A stretch of DNA of 64,000 nucleotides, from assembly GCA_946639185.1 (NCBI GenBank), contig CAMPBR010000002.1:1097-65096 (forward strand), in the 5' to 3' direction. The notes under the pieces were generated by a model, which saw only the letters and a program-made list of their open reading frames with translations, had not been told where the DNA came from and did no database searches. The translations under genes were made by a program, and so were the position numbers. The DNA comes from an uncultured Mycoplasmatota bacterium. Lineage in GTDB: Bacteria > Bacillota_I > Bacilli_A > RF39 > UBA660. Positions 9,446-41,817 of the stretch are shown piece after piece. Numbering within the stretch: position 1 is the first letter of the stretch; each line of letters opens with the position of its first letter.

Positions 9446-9462
9446 TATTTTTTAGTGGTTTA

Positions 9463-17611: not shown

Positions 17612-17957
17612 AATACTTTGACAAACGCTATATTCTAGTAATATAGAGGAAAGTCCATGCTCACACAGTACTGTGATGTCTGTAGTGTTCGTGCTAGGGG
17701 AATAAATAACCCTAGGTAGCAATAGCTAACGGCGATAACTATTCCTAAACTTCGGCATGGAATAGTATCATAAAGTGCCACAGTGACGATGCTTTTTTGA
17801 AAAAAGAAGAGTGAAACGATGGTAAACCCCACGAGTGAGAAACCCAAAATTGGTAGGGGAGTCTTAACGAAAGAATCGAATGGAGTTAAGGACCGAAAGG
17901 TAGATAGATGTTTGTCACCTCTAAAGAGGTACAGAACATGGCTTATAAAGTATTTTT
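17612..17957 (+). ncRNA. rnpB: RNase P RNA, type B (Bacillus-type)
   Basis: The conserved blocks AGAGGAAAGUCCAUGCUCACACAG, GUAGUGUUCGUGCUAGGG, AGUGCCACAGUGACGAUG, GGUAAACCCCACGAGUGAGAAACCCAAAAUUGGUAGGGGA and ACAGAACAUGGCUUAUAAAG align almost base for base with the B. subtilis RNase P RNA. A P1 helix is formed by AUACUUUGACAAAC at the 5' end and GUUUGUCA...AAAGUAU at the 3' end. The ends are approximate to +/-10 nt. Confidence 0.88.
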
Positions 17958-22042: not shown

Positions 22043-22906
22043 ATGCAAACATATGAAAGAAAAAGTCATAAATTAGGTAAAATAATTAGTGCTTCAGTAA
22101 TGGGTGTTAGTTTTATATGTATTATTGTTTTTTCTGTATTATTATACTTGGATAATAGTAAGAAACCGTTAATTAAGTATCCATTATATGAATTGTCTAC
22201 TAGGGATTGGACTAGTGGTAATGTTGTTATTAAAGTTACTAATGATTTAAAAAATGTCAATCCTAAAATAGAAGCATATTCATTTGATGGTGGGAAAAAC
22301 TTTCAAGAAAGCAATGAGTATGAAGCATTAGAAAATGGTAATTTTATTTTAGTAGTTAGAGATATAAATGGTAGACTTAGTAAATCAGTAATTGTAGCTA
22401 TTAGAAATATTGATAAAGATAGTCCACAAATAAATTTTGAAAATCCAACTACAGTTCAATTAAATAGTCCTTTTTCAGTTAGAACTGGTGTTGTTGTTAC
22501 TGAAAATGGTTCAGGACTTGCTAATAGTTATGTAGCTACTCCTAATACTATTGATACTAAAACAGAAGGTACTTATGAAGTTACTTATACAGCTGTTGAT
22601 AAAGTAGGTAATTACTCTGAAAAAACACGTACTATTATTGTTAAGGATGTAGTAGGTAGAACTTATTATAGATCTCGTTCTATATTTCAAGAAAGTTATC
22701 AATGTGAACCATATATGTGTAATTGTTTTAAACCAGCTACTGATATAGGTACATGTCCTACTGGATTTACTTTGAATGATGAAGCTAAATGCTGTAATAC
22801 TTGTTATAAAACTTGTAAGAAAACAGTATATGGAGAATGGAGTGAATGGAGTAAAGATAAAGTTACTCCAAGTGCCGTACTAGAAGTTGAAACTAAAATG
22901 GAATAA
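22043..22906 (+). CDS. Membrane-anchored protein with two Ig-like (DUF5011-like) domains and a Cys-rich C-terminal module
   Basis: N-terminal TM helix. The Ig-like signature TEGTYEVTYTAVDKVGNYSEKTRTIIV is present. The C-terminal 70 aa hold 11 Cys (CEPYMCNCF...CPTGF...CCNTCYKTCKK). Confidence 0.5.
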   Translation: MQTYERKSHKLGKIISASVMGVSFICIIVFSVLLYLDNSKKPLIKYPLYELSTRDWTSGNVVIKVTNDLKNVNPKIEAYSFDGGKNFQESNEYEALENGNFILVVRDINGRLSKSVIVAIRNIDKDSPQINFENPTTVQLNSPFSVRTGVVVTENGSGLANSYVATPNTIDTKTEGTYEVTYTAVDKVGNYSEKTRTIIVKDVVGRTYYRSRSIFQESYQCEPYMCNCFKPATDIGTCPTGFTLNDEAKCCNTCYKTCKKTVYGEWSEWSKDKVTPSAVLEVETKME

Positions 22907-25836: not shown

Positions 25837-26127
25837 ATGGATAAAACAATATATTATAATGTGTTATATGATTATTATGGATCATTATTAACTGATAAGC
25901 AAAAGAGTTATTATGAAGATTATTATTTTAATGATCTATCACTTTCTGAAATAGCTGAAAATAATAATGTTAGTAGAAATGCTGTTCATAATCAGTTAAA
26001 AATAGTAATAGAAAAATTAGAATTTTATGAAAATAATTTAAAACTCTATGAAAAATCAAAAAAAATTGGTACAATATTAAAGAGACTAGACGAAAAGACT
26101 AAAAAAGAAATAGAAGAATTAATATAG
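25837..26127 (+). CDS. ylxM: YlxM/UPF0122 putative SRP-associated DNA-binding protein
   Basis: LYDYYGSLLTDKQKSYYEDYYFNDLSLSEIAENNNVSRNAV aligns residue for residue with B. subtilis YlxM. Confidence 0.75.
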   Translation: MDKTIYYNVLYDYYGSLLTDKQKSYYEDYYFNDLSLSEIAENNNVSRNAVHNQLKIVIEKLEFYENNLKLYEKSKKIGTILKRLDEKTKKEIEELI

Positions 26128-26138: not shown

Positions 26139-27893
26139 GTGTTTAAGAATATTCTTTATGTAGGGGATGTAGATGTTGAAATTGCTTTATTAGAAGATGC
26201 TTCTATTAATACTGATATTATGAATATGCCAATAGTATTAGTAGATAGTGAAAAAGCCATTCTAGCTGAAATTAAGGAAATGAATCCTAAAAGTGTTAAG
26301 GCTAAAATGTTAGGTGAGCTTGTTGATGGTAAATTTATTGGTGGTATTTTAAGAAAACCAAATCTAACAGCTACTATTCGTAGTTTAACACCTGATGAAT
26401 TAAGATATATTGTAGGTGAAGCTAATAAAGGAAATTTATTATTAGGAATAAGCCCATTTTATAATAAACAAAATGTGTATGTTGAATTAAATGAATTATT
26501 TAGTAAACATTTATGTGTATTTGGTAATACTGGATCAGGTAAAAGTTGCGGTGTATCTAGAATTATTCAAAATATATTTACAAACAAGGATTTTGTTCCA
26601 TATAAATCTAATTTTTTAATATTTGATTCATCAAGTGAGTACTATACAGCATTTTCTAGTATAAATAGTATTAATCCTAATTATAATTATAGATTTATTA
26701 CTACTAATAATAAGAGTCCATATCCACATGAAATACTTAGTATTCCATTATGGTTACTTAACGTAGAAGATATAAGCTTATTATTAAATGTTAATACATA
26801 TACACAAATATCTATTCTAGAAAAGACTTTAAAATTGGTTAAGATATTTGCTGAATCTAGTGATAAAGCTATTGAATATCAAAACCATTTAATAGCTAGT
26901 GCGATTATGACAATTCTTTATTCTAATCAGGGATCTGCTAGTAAAAGAGATGAAATCTTCTCATTATTTAATACATGTCAAACAGAAGCATTTAATTTAA
27001 ATGCTACTGTACAAGGTATTGGATATACAAGAAGATTACAAGAATGTTTCTTAATAGATAATTCAGATAATTTCTCAGAAAGAGTATTACTTACAGAATA
27101 TGTTAATAAATATATAAGACCTGATTTAAATCAATATGAACCAGAAAAAGTTGAAAAGTATGGTTTAGTTGAATTAGAAAAAGCTTTAAACTTTGCTTTA
27201 ATTAGTGAAGGTTGGTTAAGAAATAAAAATGTATATGCTGATGCTATTACATTAAAAGTTAAATTACATGAATTAGTAATTGGTCCTAATAGTAAGTTCT
27301 TTAATTATAGTGAATTTGTTACATTAGATCAATTTATTAGTAAATTAATAGTTAAGAATAATAAGAAATATCAAATTATTAATATTAACTTAGAAGATGT
27401 AGATGATAGTTTTGCTAAAGCTATTGTTAAAGTTATGTCTAGAATGGTATTTGATCTTTCTAAAAGAATTGAAAGAGGTAGTTTACCTTTTAATATAATT
27501 CTAGAAGAAGCACATAGATATGTACAAAGAGATTCAGATACTCAATTATTTGGATATAATATATTTGATAGAATTGCTAAAGAAGGACGTAAATATGGCG
27601 TTTTATTATCTTTAATAAGTCAAAGACCAGTTGAACTTTCTGATACAGTTATTTCTCAATGCTCTAACTTTATTATATTTAAGATGAGCCATCCTAGAGA
27701 TATTGAATATATTACTAAGATGATTCCAAATATAACAGATGATACAATTGAAAAACAAAAAGCTTTACAAGTTGGTAACTGTTTAGCCTTTGGTAGTGGA
27801 TTTAGAATACCTATTATAGTAAGACTTGATATGCCTAATCCAATGCCTCAAAGTAACAGCTGTGATGTTGTAGAGAAGTGGACAAGTAGATAG
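26139..27893 (+). CDS. HerA/FtsK-superfamily (DUF87-like) P-loop ATPase, orphan. GTG start.
   Basis: Walker A VFGNTGSGKSCGV, Walker B NIILEEAHRYV and the sensor motif LISQRP are present. The N-terminal ~120 aa suggest a HAS-barrel-like domain. The gene has its own terminator. No NurA-like partner is adjacent. Confidence 0.6.
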   Translation: MFKNILYVGDVDVEIALLEDASINTDIMNMPIVLVDSEKAILAEIKEMNPKSVKAKMLGELVDGKFIGGILRKPNLTATIRSLTPDELRYIVGEANKGNLLLGISPFYNKQNVYVELNELFSKHLCVFGNTGSGKSCGVSRIIQNIFTNKDFVPYKSNFLIFDSSSEYYTAFSSINSINPNYNYRFITTNNKSPYPHEILSIPLWLLNVEDISLLLNVNTYTQISILEKTLKLVKIFAESSDKAIEYQNHLIASAIMTILYSNQGSASKRDEIFSLFNTCQTEAFNLNATVQGIGYTRRLQECFLIDNSDNFSERVLLTEYVNKYIRPDLNQYEPEKVEKYGLVELEKALNFALISEGWLRNKNVYADAITLKVKLHELVIGPNSKFFNYSEFVTLDQFISKLIVKNNKKYQIININLEDVDDSFAKAIVKVMSRMVFDLSKRIERGSLPFNIILEEAHRYVQRDSDTQLFGYNIFDRIAKEGRKYGVLLSLISQRPVELSDTVISQCSNFIIFKMSHPRDIEYITKMIPNITDDTIEKQKALQVGNCLAFGSGFRIPIIVRLDMPNPMPQSNSCDVVEKWTSR

Positions 27894-27914
27894 AGACTTA
27901 GGTCTCTTTTTTTG
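27892..27914 (+). terminator. Rho-independent terminator after the HerA-like gene
   Basis: Stem agagac/gtctct around loop ttag, then a T7 run. Confidence 0.65.
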
Positions 27915-27920
27915 TGGGAT

Positions 27921-27948
27921 AAAAAAATGCTTGACTTTTTTTTATTTT
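27921..27948 (+). promoter_or_regulatory. Near-consensus sigma-A promoter with extended -10, driving the secreted-protein cluster
   Basis: TTGACT, a 16-nt spacer, then TGtTATAAT. Confidence 0.6.
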
Positions 27949-27991
27949 GTGTTATAATATCAGCTAAACTTATTTATGGGGGGTTTGTGGT

Positions 27992-29554
27992 ATGAAAAAA
28001 TGGGGGTCAAAACATACTAACAACAACGATAGAACTAAGTTATTAATTTATATGTTAAAACATAAAAATAGAAATATTTATGCAGCAAGTTTATTAGCAC
28101 TTGCTACTATATTAATGATTGCTCAAGCTAAGAAAGATAATATTGAAGATACGGATTTAAGTGATATAGCACTTGAGCAAGAAAGTACAATTGATATGAG
28201 TAATGAAATTATTGAAGAAATAGATAATGAATTACAACAAGAAATAACTCCAGATGATAATAGTGTTATCTATTATACAGATTGGAGTTATTTTCATATT
28301 AAACACATAGGCAATAAAAAAGTGGTAGAAAGTCACCACTATTCAGATTATATATATAATGAAGAAACTGGAAATTATGAAGCTACATGTTTAGAATGTG
28401 GACACGTTGATACTAAGAAACATGTAGAAGAAGTTAGTATAGAAAGTTCAGTAGAAAATTCTAAACCTGTTTCTACAAGTAATAAAGATAATAATAAAGT
28501 TAATGATTCTAGTAATACTAGTAGTACTACTACAACAAATAATTCTAATAATAATGTAGCAGAAGAAAGTAATACTAATCAAGAAACTAATAATGGAAAT
28601 AATAACAACAATAATAATACAGAAGGAACTAAACCAACACCAAAACCTGTACATCAACATACATGGTCAGGTTGGTCATACTATAATGATAGTCAAGAAG
28701 TAAGTAGTTGTTCTGATTGTAATGAAAAGAAATATCAATCACATAGTTATGGTTCTTATTCATATAATCAAGCTAGTGGTTTAGAAGAAGCTACCTGTTC
28801 ATCTTGTGGACACGTTATAACAAGATCACATACACATCAATTTAGTGGATGGGTTGCTGATAATGATTCAACACACTCAAGAACATGTACTGTAAATGGT
28901 GATAATACTAAAGAAACAGTTAGTCACAATTATTCATTAATTGGACAAGATGGTGTTAATGATACATATAGATGTTCTGATTGTGGACATACAATGGCAC
29001 TTCCACATTCACATACATTTAATGGAACTAATACTAGAACTATAGGTAGCGCTTCTGAATGTTACCAAACATATCAAGTATGTTCTGGATGTGGTAATGA
29101 AGTAGTTATTGAGACAAAAACATCTCATAATTATGGGGCACCAACAACATCAGAAAGTGGTGGAATGATATATGAAGTATATACATGTTCAGATTGTGGA
29201 TATTCATATCAAGAAGAACATGGACATACAGCTTCATATGTTGAACGAGTAGAAGATGTTGGTAGTGATGATGTATGTTATCGTGTATATCTACATTGTG
29301 ATTATCCTGGATGTAGTCAACACGAAGATATTCTTCAAGGAGAATATGGACATAATTATCAACATGGTAGTGAAACAGTATTTGATACAACTATCGAATT
29401 CGATGAATGTACTCGTTGTCATAAAGTGATAAATGAAGTTGAAACAATAAATACAGGAGCTAAAGTAAATTTCTTTAATATTTTCGATTATCTATATGAT
29501 GACAAATTATTAGCTAAAGAAGATAAAGAGAAAACTTTAAGTTTAAAAATATAA
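27992..29554 (+). CDS. Secreted or membrane-anchored protein built from about eight tandem Cys/His-rich modules, possibly extracellular zinc-ribbon-like
   Basis: N-terminal signal/anchor (IYAASLLALATILMIAQA). The recurring unit is H-x-[YFW]...C-x-x-C-G-[HYN]-x(5-8)-H-x-H, for example ATCLECGHVDTKKH, SCSDCNEKKYQSH, ATCSSCGHVITRSHTH, YRCSDCGHTMALPHSH, VCSGCGNEV and YTCSDCGYSYQEEHGH. An Asn/Thr-rich linker is also present. Confidence 0.55.
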   Translation: MKKWGSKHTNNNDRTKLLIYMLKHKNRNIYAASLLALATILMIAQAKKDNIEDTDLSDIALEQESTIDMSNEIIEEIDNELQQEITPDDNSVIYYTDWSYFHIKHIGNKKVVESHHYSDYIYNEETGNYEATCLECGHVDTKKHVEEVSIESSVENSKPVSTSNKDNNKVNDSSNTSSTTTTNNSNNNVAEESNTNQETNNGNNNNNNNTEGTKPTPKPVHQHTWSGWSYYNDSQEVSSCSDCNEKKYQSHSYGSYSYNQASGLEEATCSSCGHVITRSHTHQFSGWVADNDSTHSRTCTVNGDNTKETVSHNYSLIGQDGVNDTYRCSDCGHTMALPHSHTFNGTNTRTIGSASECYQTYQVCSGCGNEVVIETKTSHNYGAPTTSESGGMIYEVYTCSDCGYSYQEEHGHTASYVERVEDVGSDDVCYRVYLHCDYPGCSQHEDILQGEYGHNYQHGSETVFDTTIEFDECTRCHKVINEVETINTGAKVNFFNIFDYLYDDKLLAKEDKEKTLSLKI

Positions 29555-29574
29555 AAAAGAAAGGATGAAAGGGT

Positions 29575-30351
29575 ATGAAAAATAAAAAGTGGTATCAAAA
29601 AATAAGTAACTGGATTTTTATACTACTAGTAATGATATTATTACCAATATTGCTTATTAATATTTATATCATGATACAAGCAAATAATGATAATGATAAA
29701 GTACCTAGTGTATTTGGTTATAAACCATTTATTGTATTATCTGGTTCGATGGAAACTAAAATACATGTTGGTGACTTAATCATTACTAAAGAAATAGATC
29801 CAACTACTTTGGTAGTAAATGACGTTATAGCATTTAGAGACCAAGAAAATACCGTTACTACACATAGAATTATAGATATTGTAGAAAAAGATGGTGTTAC
29901 TTATTTTATAACTAAAGGTGATAATAATAATTCACAAGACCAAAATCTTGTAGAATATAAAGATGTTGAAGGTTTATATATCACACGTATTCCTAGTGTT
30001 GGTAATATGTTAAATGAAATTTCTAAACCAACAACAGTAGTAATTATTGGATTAGGATTAACAGTAGTATTTATACTAGCTTTCCAAATATCTAATAATA
30101 AATATAAAGATCAAGAAAAACAAGAATTTTTAGAATATAAGAAGATGAAAGAAAAGGAACAAAAAGAAAAAGAAGCAAAAGAGTCTTTAGAAGCAAAACA
30201 AACAAAAACTTCTAAAAAAACTACTGCTAAGAAATCTACTTCCAAAAAAGAAGAAAGTACTCCTAAGAAACAATCTTCTAAGACTACTAGCAAAAAGACT
30301 AGTACTAAAAGTACACAGTCTAAAAAGGTAGTTTCTAAAAAAACTAAATAA
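29575..30351 (+). CDS. sipW: SipW-type (archaeal/ER-type) signal peptidase I with a C-terminal Lys/Thr/Ser-rich tail of about 90 aa
   Basis: One TM helix, then the catalytic region LSGSMETKIHVGDLIITKEI ... VTTHRIIDI ... ITKGDNN. Tail: KKTTAKKSTSKKEESTPKKQSSKTTSKKTSTKSTQSKKVVSKKTK. Confidence 0.75.
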   Translation: MKNKKWYQKISNWIFILLVMILLPILLINIYIMIQANNDNDKVPSVFGYKPFIVLSGSMETKIHVGDLIITKEIDPTTLVVNDVIAFRDQENTVTTHRIIDIVEKDGVTYFITKGDNNNSQDQNLVEYKDVEGLYITRIPSVGNMLNEISKPTTVVIIGLGLTVVFILAFQISNNKYKDQEKQEFLEYKKMKEKEQKEKEAKESLEAKQTKTSKKTTAKKSTSKKEESTPKKQSSKTTSKKTSTKSTQSKKVVSKKTK

Positions 30352-30482
30352 TAATTTAACTACTCTGGTATTTGAACTACCTCAAGTAAATTTGGGTAAA
30401 CATTCTTAGGAGTGTTTACATAGATAGGATATATCTTTGGATATACTCCTAAGAAAGTTTTATTATGGGGGAGGTGAATCAA

Positions 30483-31067
30483 ATGACTAAAAAATTATCA
30501 ATCTTAGCTGCATTAGTATTAGCTGTTTTAGTAACTGCTAACTCTGTAGGTGGTACATACGCTAAGTATACTAGTACTTTTACTGGTGCTACATCATCTG
30601 CAAGAGTTGCTAAATGGGCTTTCGAAATTAATGATACTGCTGTAACAAATTCATTTACTTTCAATTTATTTGAAACTGTAAATGATACTAATGTTGCAAC
30701 TGGTACTAACGAAAATATAATTGCACCTGGTACATCTGGTTCATTTGCTATCAAATTAGCTAATAAGTCAGAAGTTAATGCAGTTTATACAGTAGATTAT
30801 ACAGTTACAAATGCAGCTAATATCCCAGTAGAATTTAGTATCGATGGTACTACTTGGACTACTGATTTAGCTGATGTAACTACACCAGTAGCTATCAATA
30901 TGAATGCTGATACTACTATCACAGTTCAATGGAGATGGGCATTCGTTGGTACTGGTAGTGCTAACTATGCTGATACTCAAACTGATGCTACTGATACTAC
31001 TTTAGGTATTGCTGGTACTGGTACTATTTCAGTTCAAGCTAATATTACTGCTACTCAAGTTGACTAA
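30483..31067 (+). CDS. TasA/camelysin-like secreted protein with a SipW-cognate signal peptide
   Basis: Strong SD (gggggaggtgaatcaaATG). The signal peptide ends in VGGTYAKYTSTFTG, comparable to the TasA GGTWAAFND motif. The C-terminal TITVQWRWAF resembles the TasA LQFSFEATQWNG strand. 194 aa. Confidence 0.55.
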   Translation: MTKKLSILAALVLAVLVTANSVGGTYAKYTSTFTGATSSARVAKWAFEINDTAVTNSFTFNLFETVNDTNVATGTNENIIAPGTSGSFAIKLANKSEVNAVYTVDYTVTNAANIPVEFSIDGTTWTTDLADVTTPVAINMNADTTITVQWRWAFVGTGSANYADTQTDATDTTLGIAGTGTISVQANITATQVD

Positions 31068-31165
31068 TAATAGATAGAAAGTTATTTTTATAACTTTCTG
31101 CTAAGTTCATTATTAGTAATGAATTTAGTAGAGCGTTATTAAATGCTAGAGAGGGGGAATTTATT

Positions 31166-33970
31166 ATGAATAATAATATATCTGATAATAAAAGAAATAA
31201 AAAAGTTATTATTAAGATAATTATGCTTATTGTGATTATCCTTCTTTTAGTATGTAGTTGTACTGCTACTAGATATTTTGGTAGAATTGGAAAACGTAAT
31301 TTGGAATTAAATAAAGATATTAATAATAAACCAGAACTTCCAATTATAAATAATGAAAACTTAAAATTTGATTTAGATAGTGATACTAATATTACTATTA
31401 GCGGTGATAAATATAAAATTAGTTATACAACTAAAGGTGTTAAATTAAAAAATCTAACATGTTCTACATCTGATTCTAAAATCGCTACATGTTATGTAGA
31501 AGATGGATATATAGTAGTTGTACCTAAAGGAAATGGTACAGTTGATATTATATTAGAAGGTATTACTAATGATACTAGATATCAATCTACTACTACAATA
31601 ACTGTTGGTAATAGTGAAGCATCTAGTAGTAATAATGATAGTAATGATGGTAACAATAGTAGTAATGGTAATAGTGGTACTAATACTAATACTCAAGTAG
31701 ATCCTGGTACTACTAGTGGTGGTAATACTGATGTTACTCCTGAAGTTGGAGATATAGTTGTAGATAGTGATTCTAGATTAAAATCTTTAACTGTTGGATC
31801 TTATTTATTAAAACCAAGTTTTAATTCTGAAGTTTATGATTATGTAGTTACTGTTGATAGCAGTGTTAACAAAGTTAATATTAAAGCTAAAACTAATTCA
31901 AATAGAGCTAAAATATTATCTGGTACTGGTAATATTAGATTAAATAGTAATTCGACTATAGTTTCTATTATTGTAGAAGCAGAAGATGGAACTACTAGTA
32001 CATATACAGTTAAGATTAATAAAAAAGATAATCCTACTGTTTTATCAAATGATGCGACTTTAAAGAAATTAGAAGCTACTAATTATACTTTAAATCCAAC
32101 TTTTGAAAGTAATACATTTAATTATGTTTTAGAAGTTGGATATAATGTAAATAGTTTAGATTTAACAGCTATAGCTAACTCTGAATATGCTAATGTAACT
32201 ATTAAAAATAATTTTAATTTTGTTACTGGAAATAATATAGTAGAAATAGTAGTAGTTGCAGAAGATGGAACTACTAATACTTATAAAATAACTGTTAATA
32301 AACAAGCTAAAGAAGAAGCATCTAAAGCTTCACTTAAAGATATTAAAATTAATGGTAATTCAATTAATAACTTTGATTCTAATGTTTTAACATATAATGT
32401 TACAGTAGATTCAAATACTAATAGTTTAAATATTGAAGGTATACCAGAATATGATAATACTAGTGTTGTAGTAACTGGTAATACTAATCTTAATCCAGGT
32501 ACTAATACAGTAGCTATTCTAGTTACTGGTAGTGATGGAAGTAGTAAAACTTATAATATTATAGTTAATAAAGAGAAAGATAGTACTAATACATTAACTA
32601 GTTTAGGAATTAAGAATTATTTATTAAATGAAGTATTTAGTGAAAATAAATTTAATTATTCTGTTAATGTAGGAGCTGATGTTACTGACTTAGAAGTTTT
32701 ATATACTAAGAAAGATTCTAGAGAAACAGTAGAAATTACTGGTAATACTAATATTGGTGTTAGTGGAAGTGAAATTTTAGTTAAAGTAATAGCTGAAGAT
32801 GGTATTTATAATACTTATAAGATTACAGTAATTAAAGCTATAGATCTTTCTCAATATTATATTTATTCAATAGAAAATTATACTCTAGGATATAATCCTA
32901 GTAATGATAATTCTAAAACTATTATTATTAATAATAATATTTTAGAAGGAAGTGTAGTAGTAGAAAAAACAAATTCATCTATTACATTAACTGATAGTAA
33001 TAATTCTAAAGTTGTTTTAACTTATAATGATTTAGATATTACTTATATTGAAGATACAACTCTTTCTTCATTAGCATTTAAAGTTAATTATACTTCTAGT
33101 GGTGTTAAGACTATTAATGTTACAGGTAGTATAGGAAATAATATTATTAAGACATATGATATTACTTTAAATATTACTAAACAATTTAATGTAGTATTAG
33201 ATGCTAATAATGGATTCTTTACTGAATTATCTGATAAGTATGAATTTATTGTTGATGATGGTGAAATGTTTGATTTAAGTATCTATAATACAGCATATAA
33301 ATTAGTTGATGATACTAGTTGTTTAACTTATAAGTTTATTGGTTATGATATAGATAAAACTAGTAATACTCCATTATATGAAGTTGATAGTTTATCTAGT
33401 ATTAGTATAACTAGTGATATAACTTTATATGCGGTATATAGTACTACAGATACTACTACATATGTATCTACTAATAATAGATTATATTTAACTAATATTG
33501 ATTTATTTGTACTTGAAGATGGTACTAAGAATTTAATATATCCTGGTACTAATGGATCATATGTTATGAGAATTAAAAATACAACTAATGATAAAGTAGT
33601 AATTGATTCAATTAAATTAGAAGAAAATAATATATGTATTGATAGTAATACTTGTGTCAATATGGGATATAAAGTTAGATATACAGAAAATAATAGTAAT
33701 ATTTATTCTTATGCGATAGGCTCTAGTAATAATTATAGAGTTATCTATAAAGAAGGAACTAGTGTAGATGCTAATTTTAATAATTTAGAATTAAATCCAG
33801 GAGAAGAGACAGAAATAACTTTATTCTGGATGTGGGCTTATTCAGAGTCTAGTAGTCAAGATAATATTGATACTAGTATTGGTAATTATATGAATTCTCA
33901 TCCAAACCTAACTTATGATATAACAGTATCATTTACATATTCTAAAGAAAGTAGTCAGTGTGGTAACTAA
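31166..33970 (+). CDS. Giant SipW-cognate surface protein: N-terminal anchor, five cadherin-like repeats and a C-terminal TasA-like domain
   Basis: Five ~90-aa repeats each end in ...AEDGTT(S/N)TYK(I/V)T(V/I)NK. The C-terminal region (NGSYVMRIKNTTNDKV ... ETEITLFWMWAY) parallels ORF 30483..31067 (TSGSFAIKLANKSEVN ... TITVQWRWAF). Confidence 0.6.
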   Translation: MNNNISDNKRNKKVIIKIIMLIVIILLLVCSCTATRYFGRIGKRNLELNKDINNKPELPIINNENLKFDLDSDTNITISGDKYKISYTTKGVKLKNLTCSTSDSKIATCYVEDGYIVVVPKGNGTVDIILEGITNDTRYQSTTTITVGNSEASSSNNDSNDGNNSSNGNSGTNTNTQVDPGTTSGGNTDVTPEVGDIVVDSDSRLKSLTVGSYLLKPSFNSEVYDYVVTVDSSVNKVNIKAKTNSNRAKILSGTGNIRLNSNSTIVSIIVEAEDGTTSTYTVKINKKDNPTVLSNDATLKKLEATNYTLNPTFESNTFNYVLEVGYNVNSLDLTAIANSEYANVTIKNNFNFVTGNNIVEIVVVAEDGTTNTYKITVNKQAKEEASKASLKDIKINGNSINNFDSNVLTYNVTVDSNTNSLNIEGIPEYDNTSVVVTGNTNLNPGTNTVAILVTGSDGSSKTYNIIVNKEKDSTNTLTSLGIKNYLLNEVFSENKFNYSVNVGADVTDLEVLYTKKDSRETVEITGNTNIGVSGSEILVKVIAEDGIYNTYKITVIKAIDLSQYYIYSIENYTLGYNPSNDNSKTIIINNNILEGSVVVEKTNSSITLTDSNNSKVVLTYNDLDITYIEDTTLSSLAFKVNYTSSGVKTINVTGSIGNNIIKTYDITLNITKQFNVVLDANNGFFTELSDKYEFIVDDGEMFDLSIYNTAYKLVDDTSCLTYKFIGYDIDKTSNTPLYEVDSLSSISITSDITLYAVYSTTDTTTYVSTNNRLYLTNIDLFVLEDGTKNLIYPGTNGSYVMRIKNTTNDKVVIDSIKLEENNICIDSNTCVNMGYKVRYTENNSNIYSYAIGSSNNYRVIYKEGTSVDANFNNLELNPGEETEITLFWMWAYSESSSQDNIDTSIGNYMNSHPNLTYDITVSFTYSKESSQCGN
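31770..32830 (+). repeat. Five tandem ~270-bp coding repeats (cadherin-like beta-sandwich modules) inside ORF 31166..33970
   Basis: DNA-level recurrences such as gcagaagatggaactactagtacatatacagttaagattaataaa, gcagaagatggaactactaatacttataaaataactgttaataaa and gctgaagatggtatttataatacttataagattacagtaattaaa. Confidence 0.55.
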
Positions 33971-34458
33971 TGAAAACTATTAGAAGAATAATAAAGTGGT
34001 TAGTATTAATTATATTATTACTTATTATGACATTTAATATGTATAGTTATATTAATGTTAAAGTTTTAGGTAATAAATTAAATACAGTAGGTGGATATTC
34101 TATTTTACAAGTTGTATCTCCATCTATGGAACCAACTATTCATGTTGGCAGTTTAGTATTAATTAATACAAAAGAAAGTAATTATAAAGTAAATGATATA
34201 GTTACTTATGAAGATGAGAATGGGTTGTTGGTTACCCATAGAATTATTGATATAGATGATGATTTTATGGTAACTAAGGGTGATAATAATGATAGTGATG
34301 ATGGTTTAATTAGTTTAGATGTTATTAAAGGAAAACTAATTTATCAATCACATATAGTAGGAGAAATTATTACAATTCTACAAAATAAAATAGTATTAAT
34401 ATTAATATTTATAATAGGAATACTTGGATGTGTAGAATTAGATAATAAAAAAGAATAA
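33970..34458 (+). CDS. Second SipW-type signal peptidase I (162 aa, no Lys-rich tail)
   Basis: VVSPSMEPTIHVGSLVLINTKE ... LVTHRIIDI ... VTKGDNN is paralogous to 29575..30351. The start overlaps the upstream stop (ATGA). Confidence 0.72.
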   Translation: MKTIRRIIKWLVLIILLLIMTFNMYSYINVKVLGNKLNTVGGYSILQVVSPSMEPTIHVGSLVLINTKESNYKVNDIVTYEDENGLLVTHRIIDIDDDFMVTKGDNNDSDDGLISLDVIKGKLIYQSHIVGEIITILQNKIVLILIFIIGILGCVELDNKKE

Positions 34459-34474
34459 AGAAAGGAAGATTAAT

Positions 34475-35026
34475 ATGAATATGTTACTGCATAGTAAGAC
34501 ATTTAAGAAAAACTTACTTAAATGGATAATTATATATTTTGGTGTAATTGCACTGTTTACTAGTGTAGTCACATATTCAAAATATATATCTAGTCAAGTA
34601 GCAGGATCGACTGCTAGTATAGCTAAGTTCCAAGTAGATATAATAAAAACTAAGATATGTTCTACGTTGGATACAGAACGTTGTAATTACTATGATACAG
34701 ATGGTAATTTACTTAATGAAGAATATAAGTTTAAACCATATGATTCTTTAGATTTTTACTTCAATGTTGATACACAAGAATTAGAGGTTTCTACTAAACT
34801 TGTTCTTACTATTCATGTAGATTCATCTAAAGTAAAAGTTATTTCTATAAATGGAGAAGAACAAGAAGAAGATAGATCTTTAATAACACTAATAGATCCT
34901 AAGATGGATATGGGTACTATTAAAGAATATATAATTAGAGTAGAGCCTAAGGGAACTTTGTATGAAAGTGAAGTTAATATGACTGAAGCAATTAAAATAG
35001 ATTATTCAGCTGTACAAATAGATTAA
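34475..35026 (+). CDS. Small putative SipW-cognate secreted protein (183 aa)
   Basis: A TM/signal segment is followed by TYSKYISSQVAGSTASIAKF, which resembles the TYAKYTSTFTGATSSARVAKW of the TasA-like protein. Confidence 0.45.
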   Translation: MNMLLHSKTFKKNLLKWIIIYFGVIALFTSVVTYSKYISSQVAGSTASIAKFQVDIIKTKICSTLDTERCNYYDTDGNLLNEEYKFKPYDSLDFYFNVDTQELEVSTKLVLTIHVDSSKVKVISINGEEQEEDRSLITLIDPKMDMGTIKEYIIRVEPKGTLYESEVNMTEAIKIDYSAVQID

Positions 35027-35042
35027 TAAGAAAGGTGGGATT

Positions 35043-36617
35043 TTGGTGAAAACTAAATTAAGAATTTATGTAGTTATATTACTTATTTGCTTTTTTAATA
35101 TTTCATGTTTTTCTGTTTTTCCAGAATCTCATGCTAAATATATTAAGGAAGAAGTAGATAAACTTACTTATGATGCTACTTTATATAAACTAACTGGTAA
35201 TTATAAAACTATAGGTATTAATAGAAATAGATCTACATCAACAACTGGTTATTTCTATATCTTATTTGATAGAAATACACTTATGTATGATAATGACACT
35301 ACTGATAATTATACGATTACAGTAGGATCTAATAATACTAGTACTTCTAGTATTTGTAAAATTGATTCTATTATATCTAGTGGTACTAATAGTAAAGTAA
35401 GTGATTATATATATGATGTTACATATGACCATAATGATAGTAATACAATTACTATAAATGTTATATGTGATATGGATGAAGAATACTATTTTAGTAATCC
35501 AAGTGATTATATAAATGTATCTTTATCAGTATCAGAAAATATCGATGGTGAAAAGACATTTACTTATATTAATACATCATATGTATTAACAACATATCAA
35601 GAGTATTATGAAGTATATGGATCTTTATACAATAAAGCTTTATATTTTATAAGAAATACATATGCTGATGATAGTTCATTAAGAGAAGTTGCTATGAGTT
35701 ATTTCAATTCAGTATTTTTAACTGATAGTGATATAGAAACTAAAACATTAGATGGATTTAATTATGATAGTTCTACTGGTACTTTCAGTTTAAGTAGTGA
35801 TTTCTTAAAATATGCTAGAACATATTATAGTACTACTAATGGTAATGGAAAATATTATTTCTATTTTGATAGTAGTAGTACTGATAGTAGTGCATTAAAT
35901 AGTTTATTTGAATATTATTTAAGTAAATATACTAATTTTAATGAAAGTGATTATAATGAATTAATAACATATGTTAATACTAAACCTAATGGTATTTTAG
36001 ATGTATTAACTAGTGGTTTAACTGGATTCTCTGTAGTAGATGATACAGCTTATAATCATAAGATATTATCATTTAAGGATTCTATTATTAATATAGCTAA
36101 CTATGTTAATAATCCAACTCCTGTTTCAGTAATAGCTATTAATAATGATAAAGTTTTTAATATGAAAGCTTATTTAAGAAATTATATTAATAATTATGAA
36201 GGTTTATCAGATACTGTTAAATCTGGATTAATAAATAATATAATTAGTGATGCTAATTATCAATTAAGTTTATTAGTGACAGCTAATGCTACTAATAATG
36301 GTACTCAATCAACAAACGATAGTTTCTCTGAATTATTCTTTGATACATTTGGTGAAGCTGGTCAAGAAGAAAAGATTATGGCAAATGTTTATGCTGATGG
36401 AGTTGAAGCTATTACGTATGTTAAGTTCTATAACTTAGAAGAAGGTAATACTGTTATATATACTTCACCAACTGAAATAACTGAAACTGATTATAATAGT
36501 TTTGTAGATGAAGTACATGAAGATGTATATGGTGAACCATTAGATACAGATTTACCATTACCGGATGCAACTTTAGAAAATGGATTCTATACATATGATT
36601 ATGTTATTGAAGAGTAA
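35043..36617 (+). CDS. Putative SipW-cognate secreted protein (524 aa), Ser/Thr/Asn/Tyr-rich. TTG or GTG start.
   Basis: SD aaaggtgggattTTG. The signal segment is followed by PESHAKYIKEE. A terminator follows. Confidence 0.45.
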   Translation: MVKTKLRIYVVILLICFFNISCFSVFPESHAKYIKEEVDKLTYDATLYKLTGNYKTIGINRNRSTSTTGYFYILFDRNTLMYDNDTTDNYTITVGSNNTSTSSICKIDSIISSGTNSKVSDYIYDVTYDHNDSNTITINVICDMDEEYYFSNPSDYINVSLSVSENIDGEKTFTYINTSYVLTTYQEYYEVYGSLYNKALYFIRNTYADDSSLREVAMSYFNSVFLTDSDIETKTLDGFNYDSSTGTFSLSSDFLKYARTYYSTTNGNGKYYFYFDSSSTDSSALNSLFEYYLSKYTNFNESDYNELITYVNTKPNGILDVLTSGLTGFSVVDDTAYNHKILSFKDSIINIANYVNNPTPVSVIAINNDKVFNMKAYLRNYINNYEGLSDTVKSGLINNIISDANYQLSLLVTANATNNGTQSTNDSFSELFFDTFGEAGQEEKIMANVYADGVEAITYVKFYNLEEGNTVIYTSPTEITETDYNSFVDEVHEDVYGEPLDTDLPLPDATLENGFYTYDYVIEE

Positions 36618-36640
36618 GTAAAACTTACTCTTTTTTTATT
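36612..36640 (+). terminator. Rho-independent terminator
   Basis: Stem gagtaag/cttactc followed by a T7 run. Confidence 0.65.
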
Positions 36641-36689
36641 TTCTTTTTTTGATTAGTTTGATATAATTTTTTTAGATTAGAGATGATAC

Positions 36690-37352
36690 ATGATGGGAAA
36701 AGAAAAATATTCAACATCTTTTTTGGAATTTTTAGAACCAAATAAGAATAAAGCTATAGCTGTTATTTCTAAGTGTCAATATGCTATTAATATAGATAGT
36801 GGTACTCATGAAGGAATGCTTGCTGATTTAATATCAAATATTAGACCTAGATTTTCTAAAAATAATTTTTCTATAGGGGATTGTATAATAATACTTGCAG
36901 ATAATGGTTATCCAGGTATTATATATATAGAACTTCCAAAAAGTCAAACGATAAGTTTAGAACAATATAATTGTTTAAGTGAAATACTTTATTATATTAA
37001 GAATTATAATCGTATATGTGCTTGGGAAAGACCTGGTTATGAATATGAAATAAATGTTAAGAATGGTAATAATGATATTGATATTAAGAAGAATTATGCT
37101 AATGATATAGATGGTTTATTAAAAATATTAAATAATTATGTTATTAATGATAATACTTTTTATAAAGAAAGAATTATAGGTAGAAAGTTTGATAATAAAG
37201 AAGAATATGTTGATAAAATAATTGAGTCTATGGATAGTGATACTAATAATTTAAAATATAAGGGTTATAGTAGTTTACCTATACTTATATTATTTTCTAC
37301 ATTTACTTCAATTACTGTTTTAATATTAGCTATATTTCTAATAATAGACTAG
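36690..37352 (+). CDS. Hypothetical protein (220 aa) with a C-terminal TM anchor
   Basis: The C-terminal hydrophobic helix is LPILILFSTFTSITVLILAIFLII. No motif. Confidence 0.4.
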   Translation: MMGKEKYSTSFLEFLEPNKNKAIAVISKCQYAINIDSGTHEGMLADLISNIRPRFSKNNFSIGDCIIILADNGYPGIIYIELPKSQTISLEQYNCLSEILYYIKNYNRICAWERPGYEYEINVKNGNNDIDIKKNYANDIDGLLKILNNYVINDNTFYKERIIGRKFDNKEEYVDKIIESMDSDTNNLKYKGYSSLPILILFSTFTSITVLILAIFLIID

Positions 37353-37412
37353 TTTTACTGGTCTTTTTTATATGTTTTTAGTATAATAATATTATGTGCT
37401 AGGAGGGATAAT

Positions 37413-38720
37413 ATGTTTGAATCACTTGGAGATAGACTACAAAATGCTCTTCATAAAATAAAGGGATATGGAAAAATAACTGAAGATAATATATCTGATA
37501 TGATGCGTGAAATTAGACTTGCATTATTAGAGGCAGATGTTAATTATCAAGTAGTAAAAGAGTTTACAAATACCGTTAAAGAGAAAGCTTTAGGTGAGGA
37601 AGTACAAAAATCAATTAAGCCTGGAGATTTGTTTGTTAAAATTGTACAAGATGAATTAACTGAATTATTAGGTGGAGAAAGTTCTCCTTTAAATACAAAT
37701 GGTAATCCAGCTATTTTAATGTTAGTTGGTTTACAAGGTTCAGGTAAAACTACTACTATTGGTAAGTTAGCTAATTATTTAAGAAAAAAACATGCTAAAA
37801 AGCCTCTTCTTGTTGCTTGTGATGTATATCGTCCAGCTGCTATTGATCAATTAAAACAATTAGGTAAACAACTTAATATAGAAGTATATGAAGAAGGAAA
37901 AGATGATCCTGTTAAGATTAGTAAAAATGCTATTAATTATGCTAAAGAAAATGGATATGATTATGTATTAATAGATACTGCTGGACGACTTCATATTGAT
38001 AGCGAATTAATGGAAGAAGTTAAAAATATTAGTTTAGAAGTTAAACCTCAAGAAATATTATTAGTAATTGATTCTATGATGGGTCAAGATGCTATTAATG
38101 TTATTAATGGATTTAATGATGCTCTAAAATTAACTGGTGTTATTTTAACTAAGTTAGATGGGGATACTAGAGGTGGAGTTGCTTTATCTGTTAGACATTT
38201 AACTAATGTTCCAATTAAGTTTATTGGTGTTTCTGAAAAATTAGATGGTTTAGATATGTTTGACCCAGAAAGAATGGCTGGAAGAATTTTAGGTATGGGT
38301 GATATTGTTTCACTTGTTGAAAAAGCTCAAGAAGCAATTTCAGAAGAAGAAGCTATGGATACTGCTAAAAAAATGCAATCTGGTAAGTATGATTTAGAAG
38401 ATTTCTTAAAACAAATGAAACAAATTAAGAAATTAGGACCACTTGAAAATATTATTAAGATGTTACCAGGAGCTAAAAAAATGGGACTTAATAATGTTAA
38501 TATTGATCCTAAACAAATGGCTCATGTTGAAGCTATAGTTTTATCTATGACGCCATATGAAAGACGTCATCCTGAAATAATTAAAGCAAGTAGAAAAACT
38601 AGAATTGCTAAAGGATGTGGATTATCAGTTTCAGAAGTAAATAAACTTTTAATGCAATTTGATAACATGAAAAAAATGATGAAACAAATGACATCAGGTA
38701 ATATGAAATTACCTTTCTAG
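37413..38720 (+). CDS. ffh: Signal recognition particle protein Ffh
   Basis: The NG domain carries GLQGSGKTTTIGKLA, DTAGR and TKLDG, and the C-terminal M domain is Met-rich. Confidence 0.92.
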   Translation: MFESLGDRLQNALHKIKGYGKITEDNISDMMREIRLALLEADVNYQVVKEFTNTVKEKALGEEVQKSIKPGDLFVKIVQDELTELLGGESSPLNTNGNPAILMLVGLQGSGKTTTIGKLANYLRKKHAKKPLLVACDVYRPAAIDQLKQLGKQLNIEVYEEGKDDPVKISKNAINYAKENGYDYVLIDTAGRLHIDSELMEEVKNISLEVKPQEILLVIDSMMGQDAINVINGFNDALKLTGVILTKLDGDTRGGVALSVRHLTNVPIKFIGVSEKLDGLDMFDPERMAGRILGMGDIVSLVEKAQEAISEEEAMDTAKKMQSGKYDLEDFLKQMKQIKKLGPLENIIKMLPGAKKMGLNNVNIDPKQMAHVEAIVLSMTPYERRHPEIIKASRKTRIAKGCGLSVSEVNKLLMQFDNMKKMMKQMTSGNMKLPF

Positions 38721-38729: not shown

Positions 38730-39110
38730 ATGGAACGTATCGTAACAATTAAATGTAGTGATCCATATACTAATAGTGAGTTATGGAATGGAAAAGTATT
38801 AGTTGATGATGGTAATATTGAAGGAATAAGTAATAATATTGATATTACTTATATAAGTGGACACTTCTTATTAGATGGTATCACTCTTTCTTTAATTAGA
38901 AATAATTGTGAAGATGAAATTTATAATTTAGGAAAAATTAAATCGGATGATGGAATAGATTATTATGATGGTACTTGTACTAATGTTTTTAATAAGCAAT
39001 ATAAAAGAATGATATCTTTTGAAGAAGATAATGATTTAATTGAAGCTAAAGTAATAGGTTTAAAGAAAAAAATAAATGATTATAAAAAAAATATAGTTGT
39101 TGGGATATAA
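38730..39110 (+). CDS. Hypothetical protein (126 aa) in the position where rpsP normally follows ffh
   Basis: SD ctagggggaaattATG. It does not resemble ribosomal protein S16. Confidence 0.4.
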   Translation: MERIVTIKCSDPYTNSELWNGKVLVDDGNIEGISNNIDITYISGHFLLDGITLSLIRNNCEDEIYNLGKIKSDDGIDYYDGTCTNVFNKQYKRMISFEEDNDLIEAKVIGLKKKINDYKKNIVVGI

Positions 39111-39138
39111 AGAAATGTAAACATTTCTTTTTCTTTTA
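39110..39138 (+). terminator. Rho-independent terminator
   Basis: Stem agaaatgt/acatttct followed by TTTTCTTTT. Confidence 0.6.
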
Positions 39139-39200
39139 GGCCAAAGAATTATGAACTAATAGTTATTCTTCATACTATAAAGTAGATAGGAGGAAAAACT

Positions 39201-39545
39201 ATGTTTAGTAGATGTTATGAAAGAGATAACGATATAAACAATACATTTATAGCTGATAATATGGATGTTGATATGAATGCAAATTATATGAATAATATGT
39301 CTATGCCTATGAATATGGATCCAGGTATGCAAATAAATGGAGGCATTCAACCACCAATTATTGAGCCAATGCAAGAAAATATTGTTAATCGTACTATCAT
39401 TCATGAAGTTCCACATATATGTCCTAAACAAACTAGAATAATAAATCATCATGTATTTAAACACACTTATCAACCATCTTATTCTTGTTGTGAAGAAAAT
39501 GTATGTAGCGAGATTCAATGTGGTAGTTGTTGTAATTTTAGATAA
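39201..39545 (+). CDS. Possible CotD-family spore-coat protein, Met/Asn/His/Cys-rich
   Basis: Strong SD (ataggaggaaaaactATG). IIHEVPHICPKQTRIINHHVFKHTYQPSY fits the CotD-like H..P.I.P.QT..IN.H.F.H.Y.P pattern. Cys-rich C-terminus (CCEENVCSEIQCGSCCNF). A terminator follows. Confidence 0.45.
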   Translation: MFSRCYERDNDINNTFIADNMDVDMNANYMNNMSMPMNMDPGMQINGGIQPPIIEPMQENIVNRTIIHEVPHICPKQTRIINHHVFKHTYQPSYSCCEENVCSEIQCGSCCNFR

Positions 39546-39568
39546 AAGCCTGTTTAGGCTTTTTTCTT
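39544..39568 (+). terminator. Rho-independent terminator
   Basis: Stem aaagcct/aggcttt around loop gttt, then a T6 run. Confidence 0.65.
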
Positions 39569-39611
39569 TTATTATAATAATGGTATAATATATGTAGAAA
39601 GGAATGATTAT

Positions 39612-41785: not shown

Positions 41786-41817
41786 AAATCACCATAATAA
41801 AAATGGTGATTTTTTTT
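41786..41817 (+). terminator. Rho-independent terminator after priA
   Basis: Stem aaatcaccat/atggtgattt followed by a T8 run. Confidence 0.65.

Follow-up and report, generated by a model that had tools for sequence, protein, structure and literature searches.

A seven-gene operon combining two SipW-type signal peptidases with candidate cognate secreted proteins in the ylxM-ffh interval of an uncultured Bacilli genome

The subject of this analysis is the interval between the ylxM (25837-26127) and ffh (37413-38720) genes, on the + strand of a 64,000-nucleotide stretch of contig CAMPBR010000002.1 from an uncultured Mycoplasmatota bacterium (the whole stretch is hereafter called the window). The interval carries nine intact open reading frames (ORFs), all on the + strand and labelled g1 to g9, which are three separate units: a HerA-like gene (g1), the g2-g8 operon and an unrelated orphan gene (g9). 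As judged from its transcription signals and from its synteny in other genomes, g2-g8 (27992-36617) is an autonomous seven-gene operon, and it is a new architectural version of the known theme of a SipW-type peptidase with its cognate secreted subunits, built on an unannotated protein family. By analogy with characterised systems, the operon would make a cell-surface structure that does not depend on sortase, its most likely form being a thin fibre tipped with an adhesin, and would act as a functional analogue of TasA, Bsa and Tafi. To this reading we assign a probability of about 0.5.

A previous description made from the letters of the window alone (the sequence-only reading) had treated the nine genes as a single secretion and fibre block inserted into the signal recognition particle (SRP) operon. 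Our ORF calls agree with it in that nine genes separate ylxM from ffh, the first of them starting with a GTG at 26139, 11 nt past the ylxM stop codon; the extent of the block and the meaning of its location are revised below.

The g2-g8 operon and its genomic contexts

The features of the operon, hereafter also called the cassette, are the following (aa, amino acids; MFE, minimum free energy):

27931-27958, + strand: cassette promoter; TTGACT, 16-nt spacer, TG-n-TATAAT, 11 of 12 matches, extended -10
27992-29554, + strand: g2, first cassette gene, 520 aa, secreted or membrane-anchored Cys/His repeat protein; 7 CxxC and 4 HxH modules behind a signal anchor
29575-30351, + strand: g3, 258 aa, SipW/archaeal-type signal peptidase I, paralogue A; TIGR02228 92.3 bits; SGSMET, THR and GDNN motifs
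30390-30470, + strand: structured g4 leader; MFE -27.2 kcal/mol, z -5.0; conserved in 6 cassettes
30483-31067, + strand: g4, 194 aa, proposed major subunit; signal peptide, GGTYA|KYTS motif, N-terminal extension, beta-sandwich core, C-terminal QVD
31068-31150, + strand: hairpin cluster after the g4 stop codon; MFE -26.5 kcal/mol, z -6.6; no U-tract
31166-33970, + strand: g5, 934 aa, proposed membrane-anchored base or stalk; lipobox VCSC, low-complexity linker, 4 cadherin-like repeats, beta domains, g4-like C-terminus
33970-34458, + strand: g6, 162 aa, SipW/archaeal-type signal peptidase I, paralogue B; TIGR02228 77.4 bits; SPSMEP, THR and GDNN motifs
34475-35026, + strand: g7, 183 aa, proposed minor subunit; VTYS|KYIS motif, two conserved Cys, beta-sandwich, C-terminal QID
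35043-36617, + strand: g8, 524 aa, secreted, proposed tip or adhesin; SHA|KY motif kept in 6 cassettes, body unrelated to g4 and g7
36609-36633, + strand: cassette terminator, intrinsic; 11-bp stem plus T-run; -11.6 kcal/mol, z -3.6

The cassette was compared with those found on contigs encoding g4 homologues at 53-82 % identity, for a total of six full cassettes, namely that of the window and five others (L081/L082, L084, L087/L088, L089 and L090/L091). The site ahead of g2 is the best promoter-like site of the whole region, and a near-consensus promoter of the sigma-A type precedes g2 in all six cassettes, reading TTGACA-17-TATAAT in the five that lie outside the window. Since a terminator follows the HerA gene, a conserved promoter stands before g2 and a second terminator follows g8, we conclude that the operon is, on these signals, autonomous.

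The same seven genes, in the same order, were found in at least four other genomic neighbourhoods. Specifically, the cassette lies after ileS (L081/L082), after spoIVA (L084 and L090/L091), after smpB and small ORFs and before an M18 peptidase gene (L087/L088), and between ftsEX-pcsB-ykuD and uvrB (L089); in the window it is not downstream of spoIVA. Neither HerA nor ffh nor g9 stands beside the cassette in the other cassette-bearing contigs. The proteins diverge at very different rates: g4 and g3 are the best conserved (53-82 % and 63-67 % identity to the window copies, respectively), followed by g6 (41-46 %), g7 (36-41 %) and g5 (27-44 %), while g2 (21-30 %) and g8 (22-28 %) vary most, g8 being taken as the fastest-evolving component.

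A mobile element was considered as the origin of this distribution and was rejected, as there are no flanking direct or inverted repeats beyond AT-rich noise and no integrase or transposase, and both GC content and GC skew are continuous with the flanks (GC content is 0.22-0.31 from the interval into the surrounding DNA). In addition, a tblastn search with g4 returned no match in 72,556 plasmids or 50,697 phages.

A reduced variant of the cassette (L083) consists of a g4-like gene, an intact SipW gene, a degenerate one, a g7-like gene and another protein with an A|KY signal end, beside a 1,430-aa DUF7601 protein. In the degenerate paralogue (L083, 9197-9886), which lies next to the intact SipW gene, the catalytic Ser motif SGSME is replaced by SLEEE, and its product is likely a pseudo-peptidase.

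The signal peptidases and their candidate substrates

Two SipW-type peptidases had been proposed in the sequence-only reading, and this assignment held: with the catalytic motifs present, and with TIGR02228 scores well above the curated cutoff of 51.85 bits, g3 and g6 are by profile and motif bona fide enzymes of the TIGR02228 class (SipW/archaeal/endoplasmic reticulum (ER) type). On the equivalog model of Bacillus SipW (NF046067) they reach 101.4 and 67.8 bits, respectively, both below its cutoff of 190 bits; by these scores they are of the same class as B. subtilis SipW and are not its orthologues. Besides the catalytic part, g3 carries a second transmembrane segment and a Lys/Ser/Thr-rich C-terminal tail. 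The two enzymes are about 30-36 % identical and each is kept across the cassettes, a pattern by which they are old paralogues. In all six cassettes each peptidase gene is next to a putative substrate gene, with g4 immediately after g3, and g7 and g8 immediately after g6.

The signal peptides of g4, g7 and g8 share a motif at their end, [ST]-[YH]-[AS]|K-Y, kept across the cassettes and in the reduced variant. It takes the forms G-G-T-Y-A|K-Y-T-S in g4, V-T-Y-S|K-Y-I-S in g7 and S-H-A|K-Y in g8, obeys the -3/-1 rule and, if cut at the position that we infer from it, would leave Lys-Tyr as the mature N-terminus. The sequence-only reading had counted at least four such proteins; the motif is present in g4, g7 and g8, but g5 has instead a lipobox (L-x-S-C) and g2 an ordinary signal or a lipobox, and it does not hold that all the signal peptides of the block are of the SipW type, as g5 and most g2 orthologues look like lipoproteins. 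The likeness of the motif to the TasA site is by eye only: the isolated N-termini of g4, g5, g7 and g8 gave no match to the SipW-associated models TIGR04088, TIGR04089 and TIGR04090 at E<=10, while the positive control, B. subtilis TasA, scored 38 bits on TIGR04088 (cutoff 19 bits). The identity of the control sequence was confirmed by NF046066 at 513.8 bits. Class III signals, similar to those of type IV pilins, were rejected as an alternative, given that the TIGR04205 matches are faint (E ~0.04-0.07), the hydrophobic stretch lies before the motif and not after it, and no prepilin peptidase was found.

The candidate major subunit, g4 (ATG at 30483), is an exact match to the database protein P0001. 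Its family counts at least 1,838 proteins, none of which has a Pfam domain, and those with a source name are called 'hypothetical'. Conservation within the family reaches 0.94 over the motif and 0.78 over the segment that follows the predicted cut, against 0.62 over the core; this well-conserved segment nevertheless has no defined structure in the model of the monomer. In the AlphaFold2 model (predicted local distance difference test score, pLDDT, 73.7) a signal helix is followed by a low-confidence segment (residues 21-45) and then by a beta-sandwich.

The g4 ORF is bracketed by structured RNA. The leader contains a 10-bp hairpin (GTAAACATTC/GAGTGTTTAC), a conserved ACATAGAT box and the inverted repeat I4, and is followed by a strong ribosome-binding site (GGGGGAGG). 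One element of the leader, CTCCTAAG, can pair alternatively with the upstream CTTAGGAG, which mimics a Shine-Dalgarno sequence, or with the real Shine-Dalgarno sequence of g4, an arrangement that suggests translational control; the bases of the leader can also be read as a sigma-K-like AC-N17-CATA promoter. Downstream of g4, the hairpin cluster consists of three stacked stems in the window, two of which are kept across the cassettes, and 10 of its 24 predicted pairs show compensatory changes across the six cassettes. This cluster may be an element that stabilises, processes or attenuates the mRNA. No known RNA family of Rfam reached its gathering score in the structured spacers, the g4 leader included.

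The 934-aa product of g5 had been credited with five cadherin-like repeats and a TasA-like C-terminal domain. Cadherin-like repeats are indeed present (PF12733, 85.8 bits, E 2.8e-24, four stretches), but a self-built hidden Markov model (HMM) counts exactly four of them, at 203-287, 297-380, 388-470 and 475-558. The C-terminal domain (~770-934) had no Pfam or NCBIfam match and is, by profile comparison, a paralogue of g4: it aligns to the g4 family with an hhalign probability of 94.8 % (E 1.1e-8), sharing with the g4 core the motifs IxPGT.GSF, W.W and D..DT.xG, so that the claim of a C-terminus related to the 194-aa protein stood. At the other end of the protein, the signal peptide closes with L-x-S-C followed by T-A-x-x-Y-F-G. 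On pattern inspection, with [LVI][ASTVI][GAS]C at the end of the hydrophobic region as criterion, a lipobox was recognised in all six orthologues (VCSC, ISSC or [IL]TSC, that is [LIV]-[TSC]-S-C), and by this pattern the g5 products look like lipoproteins.

A profile-level relationship to g4 was also observed for g7 (hhalign probability 89.8 %, E 2e-7), with parallels in an N-terminal segment (A-x-I-A-K-F in g7, A-R-V-A-K-W in g4) and in the C-terminal Q-[VI]-D. The AlphaFold2 model of g7 (pLDDT 79.6) shows a long N-terminal helix and then a sandwich of about eight strands. Relatives of g8 are few: 20 cluster representatives at E<=1e-3 were found by HMMER among 1.84 billion proteins, and four proteins by a word-index search, with no Pfam match in g8 or in 10 relatives. 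Lastly, g2 agrees with the earlier description of a secreted Cys/His-repeat protein, and its modules are putative extracellular Zn-binding repeats; the score on the ECs_2282 Zn-binding family (NF047912) is 33 bits, below the cutoff of 37. Orthologues of g2 hold the same position in the five other cassettes, and three of these five (L084, L087 and L090) have a clear lipobox, which the window copy has not. The zinc-ribbon-like CxxC...HxH modules, together with His-rich stretches in the orthologues, are an unusual make-up for a protein predicted to be extracellular.

Relationship to TasA and the proposed surface structure

The sequence-only reading had described the 194-aa protein as TasA/camelysin-like. 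Essentially no similarity to TasA or camelysin emerged from the profile searches. Neither g4 nor g7 nor the g5 C-terminus had a Pfam or NCBIfam match at E<=0.1; when scanned one by one, 0 of 43 g4-family and 0 of 25 g7-family members matched PF12389, TIGR04088, TIGR04089, TIGR04090 or NF046066 at E<=1; and the g4 profile aligned to B. subtilis TasA with an hhalign probability of 3.6 %. Sequence and profile searches of the PDB with g4, the g4 family, the g7 family and the g5 C-terminus found no fibre protein and no TasA. Sub-threshold PF12389 matches were detected in two distant relatives, a 182-aa protein of L083 (E 0.018, in the core) and a 192-aa protein of L066 (E 0.19, in the signal), neither of them scoring above 15 bits (the two scores are 12 and 15 bits) where the cutoff is 22.5 bits; a bridge to TasA built on distant relatives was rejected, as it consists of just these two matches and is not reproduced in the g7 family.

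Comparison of the models with the PDB by Foldseek gave no match at E<1e-3 for either g4 or g7. For g4, the TasA fibre (8aur_A) came at rank 6 (probability 0.93, E 0.011, TMq 0.37), among PapD/MSP-like domains and donor-strand pilins; for g7, TasA was not in the top 50 and the PapG pilin domain was at rank 4. Donor-strand pilins come up repeatedly among these weak structural neighbours (the PapG pilin domain, CsuA/B, the major subunit of the CS20 fimbria, FimA, BPSL1626, the TasA fibre and the Saci_0406 thread), a recurrence that counts in favour of the fibre reading. The structural match of the g4 model to TasA is therefore weak, no better than to any Ig-like sandwich, and membership of the TasA/camelysin family is not demonstrated by these searches, while a functional analogy remains.

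The favoured reading can be put as follows. The precursors would be exported by Sec, and g3 and g6, possibly with a division of labour, would cut g4, g7 and g8 after [ST]-[YH]-[AS], so that the mature proteins would begin with Lys-Tyr. The putative lipoprotein g5 would use its stalk of cadherin-like and other Ig-like domains to hold the C-terminal g4-type domain away from the membrane. Because this domain comprises the core and has no free N-terminal extension, it could only accept a strand, hence the proposed role of g5 as base and nucleator. The shaft would be made of g4, whose conserved N-terminal extension would insert into a neighbouring subunit by donor-strand complementation, as in TasA, BsaA, Tafi and chaperone-usher pili. 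A minor or adaptor role is proposed for g7 through the N-terminal segment and the Q-[VI]-D held in common with g4, and a distal adhesin role for g8, which would start with the same N-terminus but has a large body that diverges fast; g2 would be an extracellular accessory protein of the Cys/His (Zn) type.

Several observations argue for this fibre or adhesin reading. Operon-encoded peptidases of the TIGR02228 class accompany matrix or fibre subunits in both bacteria and archaea; in loci of the TasA superfamily such a peptidase commonly goes with subunits, a membrane anchor and an adhesin for the tip (bioRxiv 10.64898/2026.01.04.697558). The predicted mature N-terminus is the same in three proteins whose bodies differ, and g5 carries the core without a free extension, a pattern that recalls the strand donors and the acceptor-only components of chaperone-usher pili. 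In BsaA, the donor strand is formed by residues 28-38, which come just after the SipW site and lack order in the monomer (PMC11580942), and the comparable behaviour of the g4 extension supports the donor-strand reading. The strong ribosome-binding site of g4 and the conserved structured RNA on both sides of its ORF are compatible with a subunit needed in excess, and the rapid evolution of g8 is as expected for an exposed tip. A fibre or adhesin, proposed as a plausible role in the sequence-only reading, thus appears the most economical account of this peptidase-substrate module, and the part of that reading that compared the block to an expanded tapA-sipW-tasA module survives in the dedicated peptidases, the cognate substrates, the larger size, the giant subunit and the accessory secreted proteins, but not in homology to TasA.

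Other points weigh against it. No sequence or profile link to any characterised fibre subunit was found in Pfam, NCBIfam, the PDB or by hhalign. The similarity between g4 and g7 lies mostly in the signal and N-terminal region, and could reflect shared recognition by the peptidases only. Furthermore, g5 might be cut by one of the SipW paralogues instead of being lipidated.

Several rival readings were considered. The g4, g7 and g5 C-terminal domains could be true jelly-roll members of the TasA/BsaA superfamily lying beyond the reach of HMMs, as AbpA and BsaA do; the rank of 8aur_A for g4, the faint PF12389 signals in L083 and L066, the resemblance of the signal end G-G-T-Y-A-K-Y to G-G-G-T-W-A-A-F of TasA and the extreme divergence known for this superfamily all speak in its favour, but the uniform absence of family matches among 43 and 25 members set against 38 bits for a real TasA, the 3.6 % hhalign probability and the g7 model argue against it, and we consider it doubtful, if worth keeping in mind. 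Equally tentative is the opposite extension, according to which the g4 family would define fibres of a new class, dependent on SipW, assembled by donor strands and separate from the TasA jelly-roll lineage, with a lipoprotein stalk bearing an acceptor-only copy of the subunit, two specialised peptidases and a hypervariable adhesin cap, forming a major surface organelle whose major subunit would be controlled at the RNA or translational level. The same genes might also encode a non-polymeric set, in which the peptidases mature beta-sandwich surface proteins acting as monomers or in a defined complex, with g4 as an abundant coat protein of the wall or membrane, g5 as a lipoprotein adhesin and g8 as a secreted binding protein. 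The folds are generic sandwiches of the Ig/CARDB/CBM type without a signature specific to pilins, many adhesins that form no fibre also have cadherin-like repeats, and peptidase recognition alone could account for the N-terminal conservation. This nevertheless seems to us rather unlikely: the g5 C-terminus copies the g4 core, for which the usual reason is a shared interface, as in the pilin domain of FimH; the mature N-terminus is common to g4, g7 and g8 despite their differing bodies; dedicated TIGR02228 peptidases have so far been tied to fibre or matrix subunits in bacteria and archaea; and hairpins flank g4, as expected for a subunit in stoichiometric excess.

Another line of explanation places the structure on the spore, as a surface fibre, an appendage or a coat layer assembled during sporulation. 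A parallel exists in TasA: it was originally discovered as CotN, a protein associated with spores, and its incorporation into them requires SipW. The host appears to form endospores, with SpoIVA, SpoIID and a CotD-like gene near ffh, the cassette lies just downstream of spoIVA in two lineages (L084 and L090), and a box before g4, AAAC-N17-CATAGAT, can be read as a sigma-K-like -35/-10 pair in six cassettes. However, in each of the six cassettes the promoter of the operon departs little from the vegetative sigma-A consensus, there is no spoIVA adjacency in the window or in three other contexts, the AAAC...CATAGAT box falls on a hairpin whose pairing is maintained as the sequence changes, which points to an RNA element more than to a promoter, and a lipoprotein base implies anchoring to the cytoplasmic membrane; a spore-associated role is in our judgement improbable. 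Least credible of all, with hardly any probability left, is a single HerA-powered apparatus for secretion or fibre export made of all nine genes and embedded in the SRP operon. Its genes are contiguous and on the same strand, but synteny refutes it: HerA is kept in place in relatives that have no g2-g9, a terminator and a promoter separate it from g2, and the cassettes on the other contigs include neither HerA nor another ATPase. HerA as the motor of the block was rejected on the synteny of 80 ffh loci and of the other cassette contexts.

Coming back to the proposed fibre, its closest point of reference is the tapA-sipW-tasA operon of B. subtilis, together with sipW-tasA-calY and CapP of B. 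cereus. The common traits are a dedicated operon-encoded signal peptidase of the ER/archaeal type (TIGR02228 class), a small, major, secreted, beta-rich candidate subunit whose mature N-terminus would follow a site of the G-T-aromatic-A type, an accessory protein proposed as anchor or nucleator, independence from sortase and a spore-forming host. The window operon differs in having seven genes instead of three and two peptidase paralogues, in that g4 and g7 do not match PF12389, NF046066 or TIGR04088 and their predicted fold is not specifically TasA-like, and in the presence of the extra Zn-type repeat protein g2 and of the variable 524-aa protein g8. The candidate anchor g5 is a predicted lipoprotein of 934 aa that has cadherin-like repeats; unlike TapA, it also includes a copy of the subunit core.

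The sipW-bsaA-bsaB-bsaC operon of C. perfringens (PMC7395162; PMC11580942) likewise groups SipW, several paralogous secreted subunits and a large accessory protein, and its BsaA subunit has an N-terminus just past the SipW site that is disordered in the monomer, as in the model of g4; in contrast, no TIGR04090 match, von Willebrand factor A (vWA) protein or link to type IV pili was seen here, and a second peptidase is present. Archaeal loci of the TasA superfamily (Tafi, AbpA/AbpB and AbpX) similarly contain a signal peptidase I gene, one or more shaft subunits, a predicted tip adhesin and a membrane anchor, their subunits being small beta-sandwich or jelly-roll proteins that polymerise by donor-strand complementation (bioRxiv 10.64898/2026.01.04.697558), whereas the present host is bacterial, export would be by Sec and not by Tat, and no sequence or profile link was found. 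With the chaperone-usher components FimH and PapG the operon has in common a proposed terminal component made of functional domains and a single strand-accepting domain of pilin type, and both CsuA/B and the pilin domain of PapG come up repeatedly among the closest structural matches; it departs from them in its monoderm host, the lack of a chaperone and an usher, the predicted cell-proximal position of the two-domain protein and the SipW-type maturation. Pfam and NCBIfam found no domain of sortase/LPXTG, chaperone/usher or prepilin peptidase/assembly ATPase systems in the nine products.

In the small-genome uncultured gut Bacilli that carry it, this conserved and strongly promoted seven-gene operon is a concrete candidate for attachment to mucus, food particles or other microbes. 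Research on TasA-like fibres gains from it a large unannotated family, an undescribed architecture (two peptidases and a lipoprotein with a subunit domain) and a clean set of constructs for structural work. If the g4 family were indeed an independent class of donor-strand fibre, it would represent a major unseen surface organelle of uncultured spore-forming gut Bacilli.

The HerA gene, the ylxM-ffh interval and the host

Outside the cassette, the interval contains the following features:

26139-27893, + strand: g1, HerA-like ATPase, resident gene of the ftsY-ylxM unit
27892-27907, + strand: intrinsic-terminator-like hairpin and T-run that ends the ftsY-ylxM-HerA unit; -8.1 kcal/mol, z -1.9, weak on energy alone
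36690-37352, + strand: g9, 220 aa, tail-anchored orphan with its own -10 box and its own terminator (37346-37364)

The ylxM assignment is given by PF04297 (E 1e-26). The 80 closest ffh loci in a collection of species-representative genomes, all from metagenome-assembled genomes of uncultured gut 'Bacilli', 'Tenericutes' or 'Clostridium sp. CAG:710 / CAG:302', were searched by tblastn with all the window proteins, and 58 of these relatives were informative for the ylxM-ffh layout. The premise that ylxM and ffh are normally adjacent fails in this clade: ylxM directly adjoins ffh in only 7 of the 58, 33 have an orthologue of g1 (49-74 % identity, and often longer, 650-870 aa) either between the two genes or just before ffh, and ffh is unlinked, with no ftsY or ylxM within 5-10 kb upstream, in the remaining 18. 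By this distribution, HerA is ancestral at its position in the clade, a resident and not an inserted gene. It follows the ftsY and ylxM genes in apparent co-transcription across the clade.

The insertion into the SRP operon claimed by the sequence-only reading does not apply to g1; by the same comparison, g2-g9 are alone in being lineage-specific at this site. The check on relatives showed that g2-g9 are lacking there among the 80 ffh loci even in the closest relative, L001 (Ffh 90 %, HerA 74 %); single g4-like or g5-like genes only were found, in four of the 80 (L066, L042, L046 and L024). One of them is a solitary g4-like gene directly upstream of ffh in L066, a more distant relative (9358-9936; 192 aa, 32 % identity, signal end AGTLAYYRS), with no SipW gene within 10 kb upstream, where rnf genes and frr are found. 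Other genes stand between HerA and ffh in several relatives, among them fmt (methionyl-tRNA formyltransferase) and genes for membrane proteins; in one sub-clade (L004, L022, L023, L025, L026, L033 and L036) they form a conserved set made of a ~400-aa tail-anchored protein, fmt and one or two ~245-aa membrane proteins. As these genes differ across relatives, the ylxM-ffh interval is plastic and takes cargo that varies between lineages. The position of the cassette between HerA and ffh is, on this comparison, a lineage-specific landing site with no functional link to SRP: the cassette sits elsewhere in other genomes, and HerA, ancestral here and separated from g2 by a terminator and a promoter, is absent beside the 6 other cassette contigs (4 neighbourhoods). 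The tempting inference that the SRP-operon location or the HerA gene belongs to the system is thereby corrected.

The earlier assignment of g1 as an orphan HerA-type ATPase was confirmed by matches to DUF87 (E 1.2e-23) and to the PADLOC HerA model PDLC04102 (E 2.8e-101). It is flanked by ylxM and, on its other side, by g2 here and by variable genes in the relatives; no NurA, Sir2 or DUF4297 partner is present beside it, and the neighbours tested had no PADLOC match. The NCBIfam HerA equivalogs are far below their cutoffs. By its neighbours, g1 is not placed among HerA-NurA repair or Sir2-HerA or DUF4297-HerA defence systems, and PADLOC matched no defence family with g9 or with the genes after HerA in L001 and L004. 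The orphan g9 had no family match in Pfam, NCBIfam or PADLOC, and neither the five other full cassettes nor the 80 ffh loci contain it; ffh, downstream of it, has a -10 box of its own.

With regard to the host, the window encodes SpoIVA (7069-8544; 55-62 % identical to SpoIVA of L084 and L090), a SpoIID-domain protein (41803-43083), a small CotD-like protein (39201-39545) and a class A penicillin-binding protein (13200-15794); on the strength of these genes it appears to belong to an endospore-forming lineage with a peptidoglycan wall. Two complete chromosomes among the relatives are ~1.5 Mb each.

A few further observations concern the surroundings. The genes usually found after ffh are rpsP-rimM-trmD-rplS; here, the region downstream of ffh (38730-41780) contains instead a 126-aa orphan, the CotD-like gene and priA, and the ffh neighbourhood as a whole is rearranged in this clade. 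Between rny and rnj, a gene at 22043-22906 encodes a 287-aa membrane-anchored protein with a surface Ig-like domain (PF16403) and a Cys-rich C-terminal tail. Among RNA genes, Rfam places RF03531, a C. difficile small RNA, at 63896-63995 inside a helicase gene, with a score of 65.4 barely above the gathering score of 65.2, and a class B RNase P RNA at 17613-17950 with 275.8 bits.

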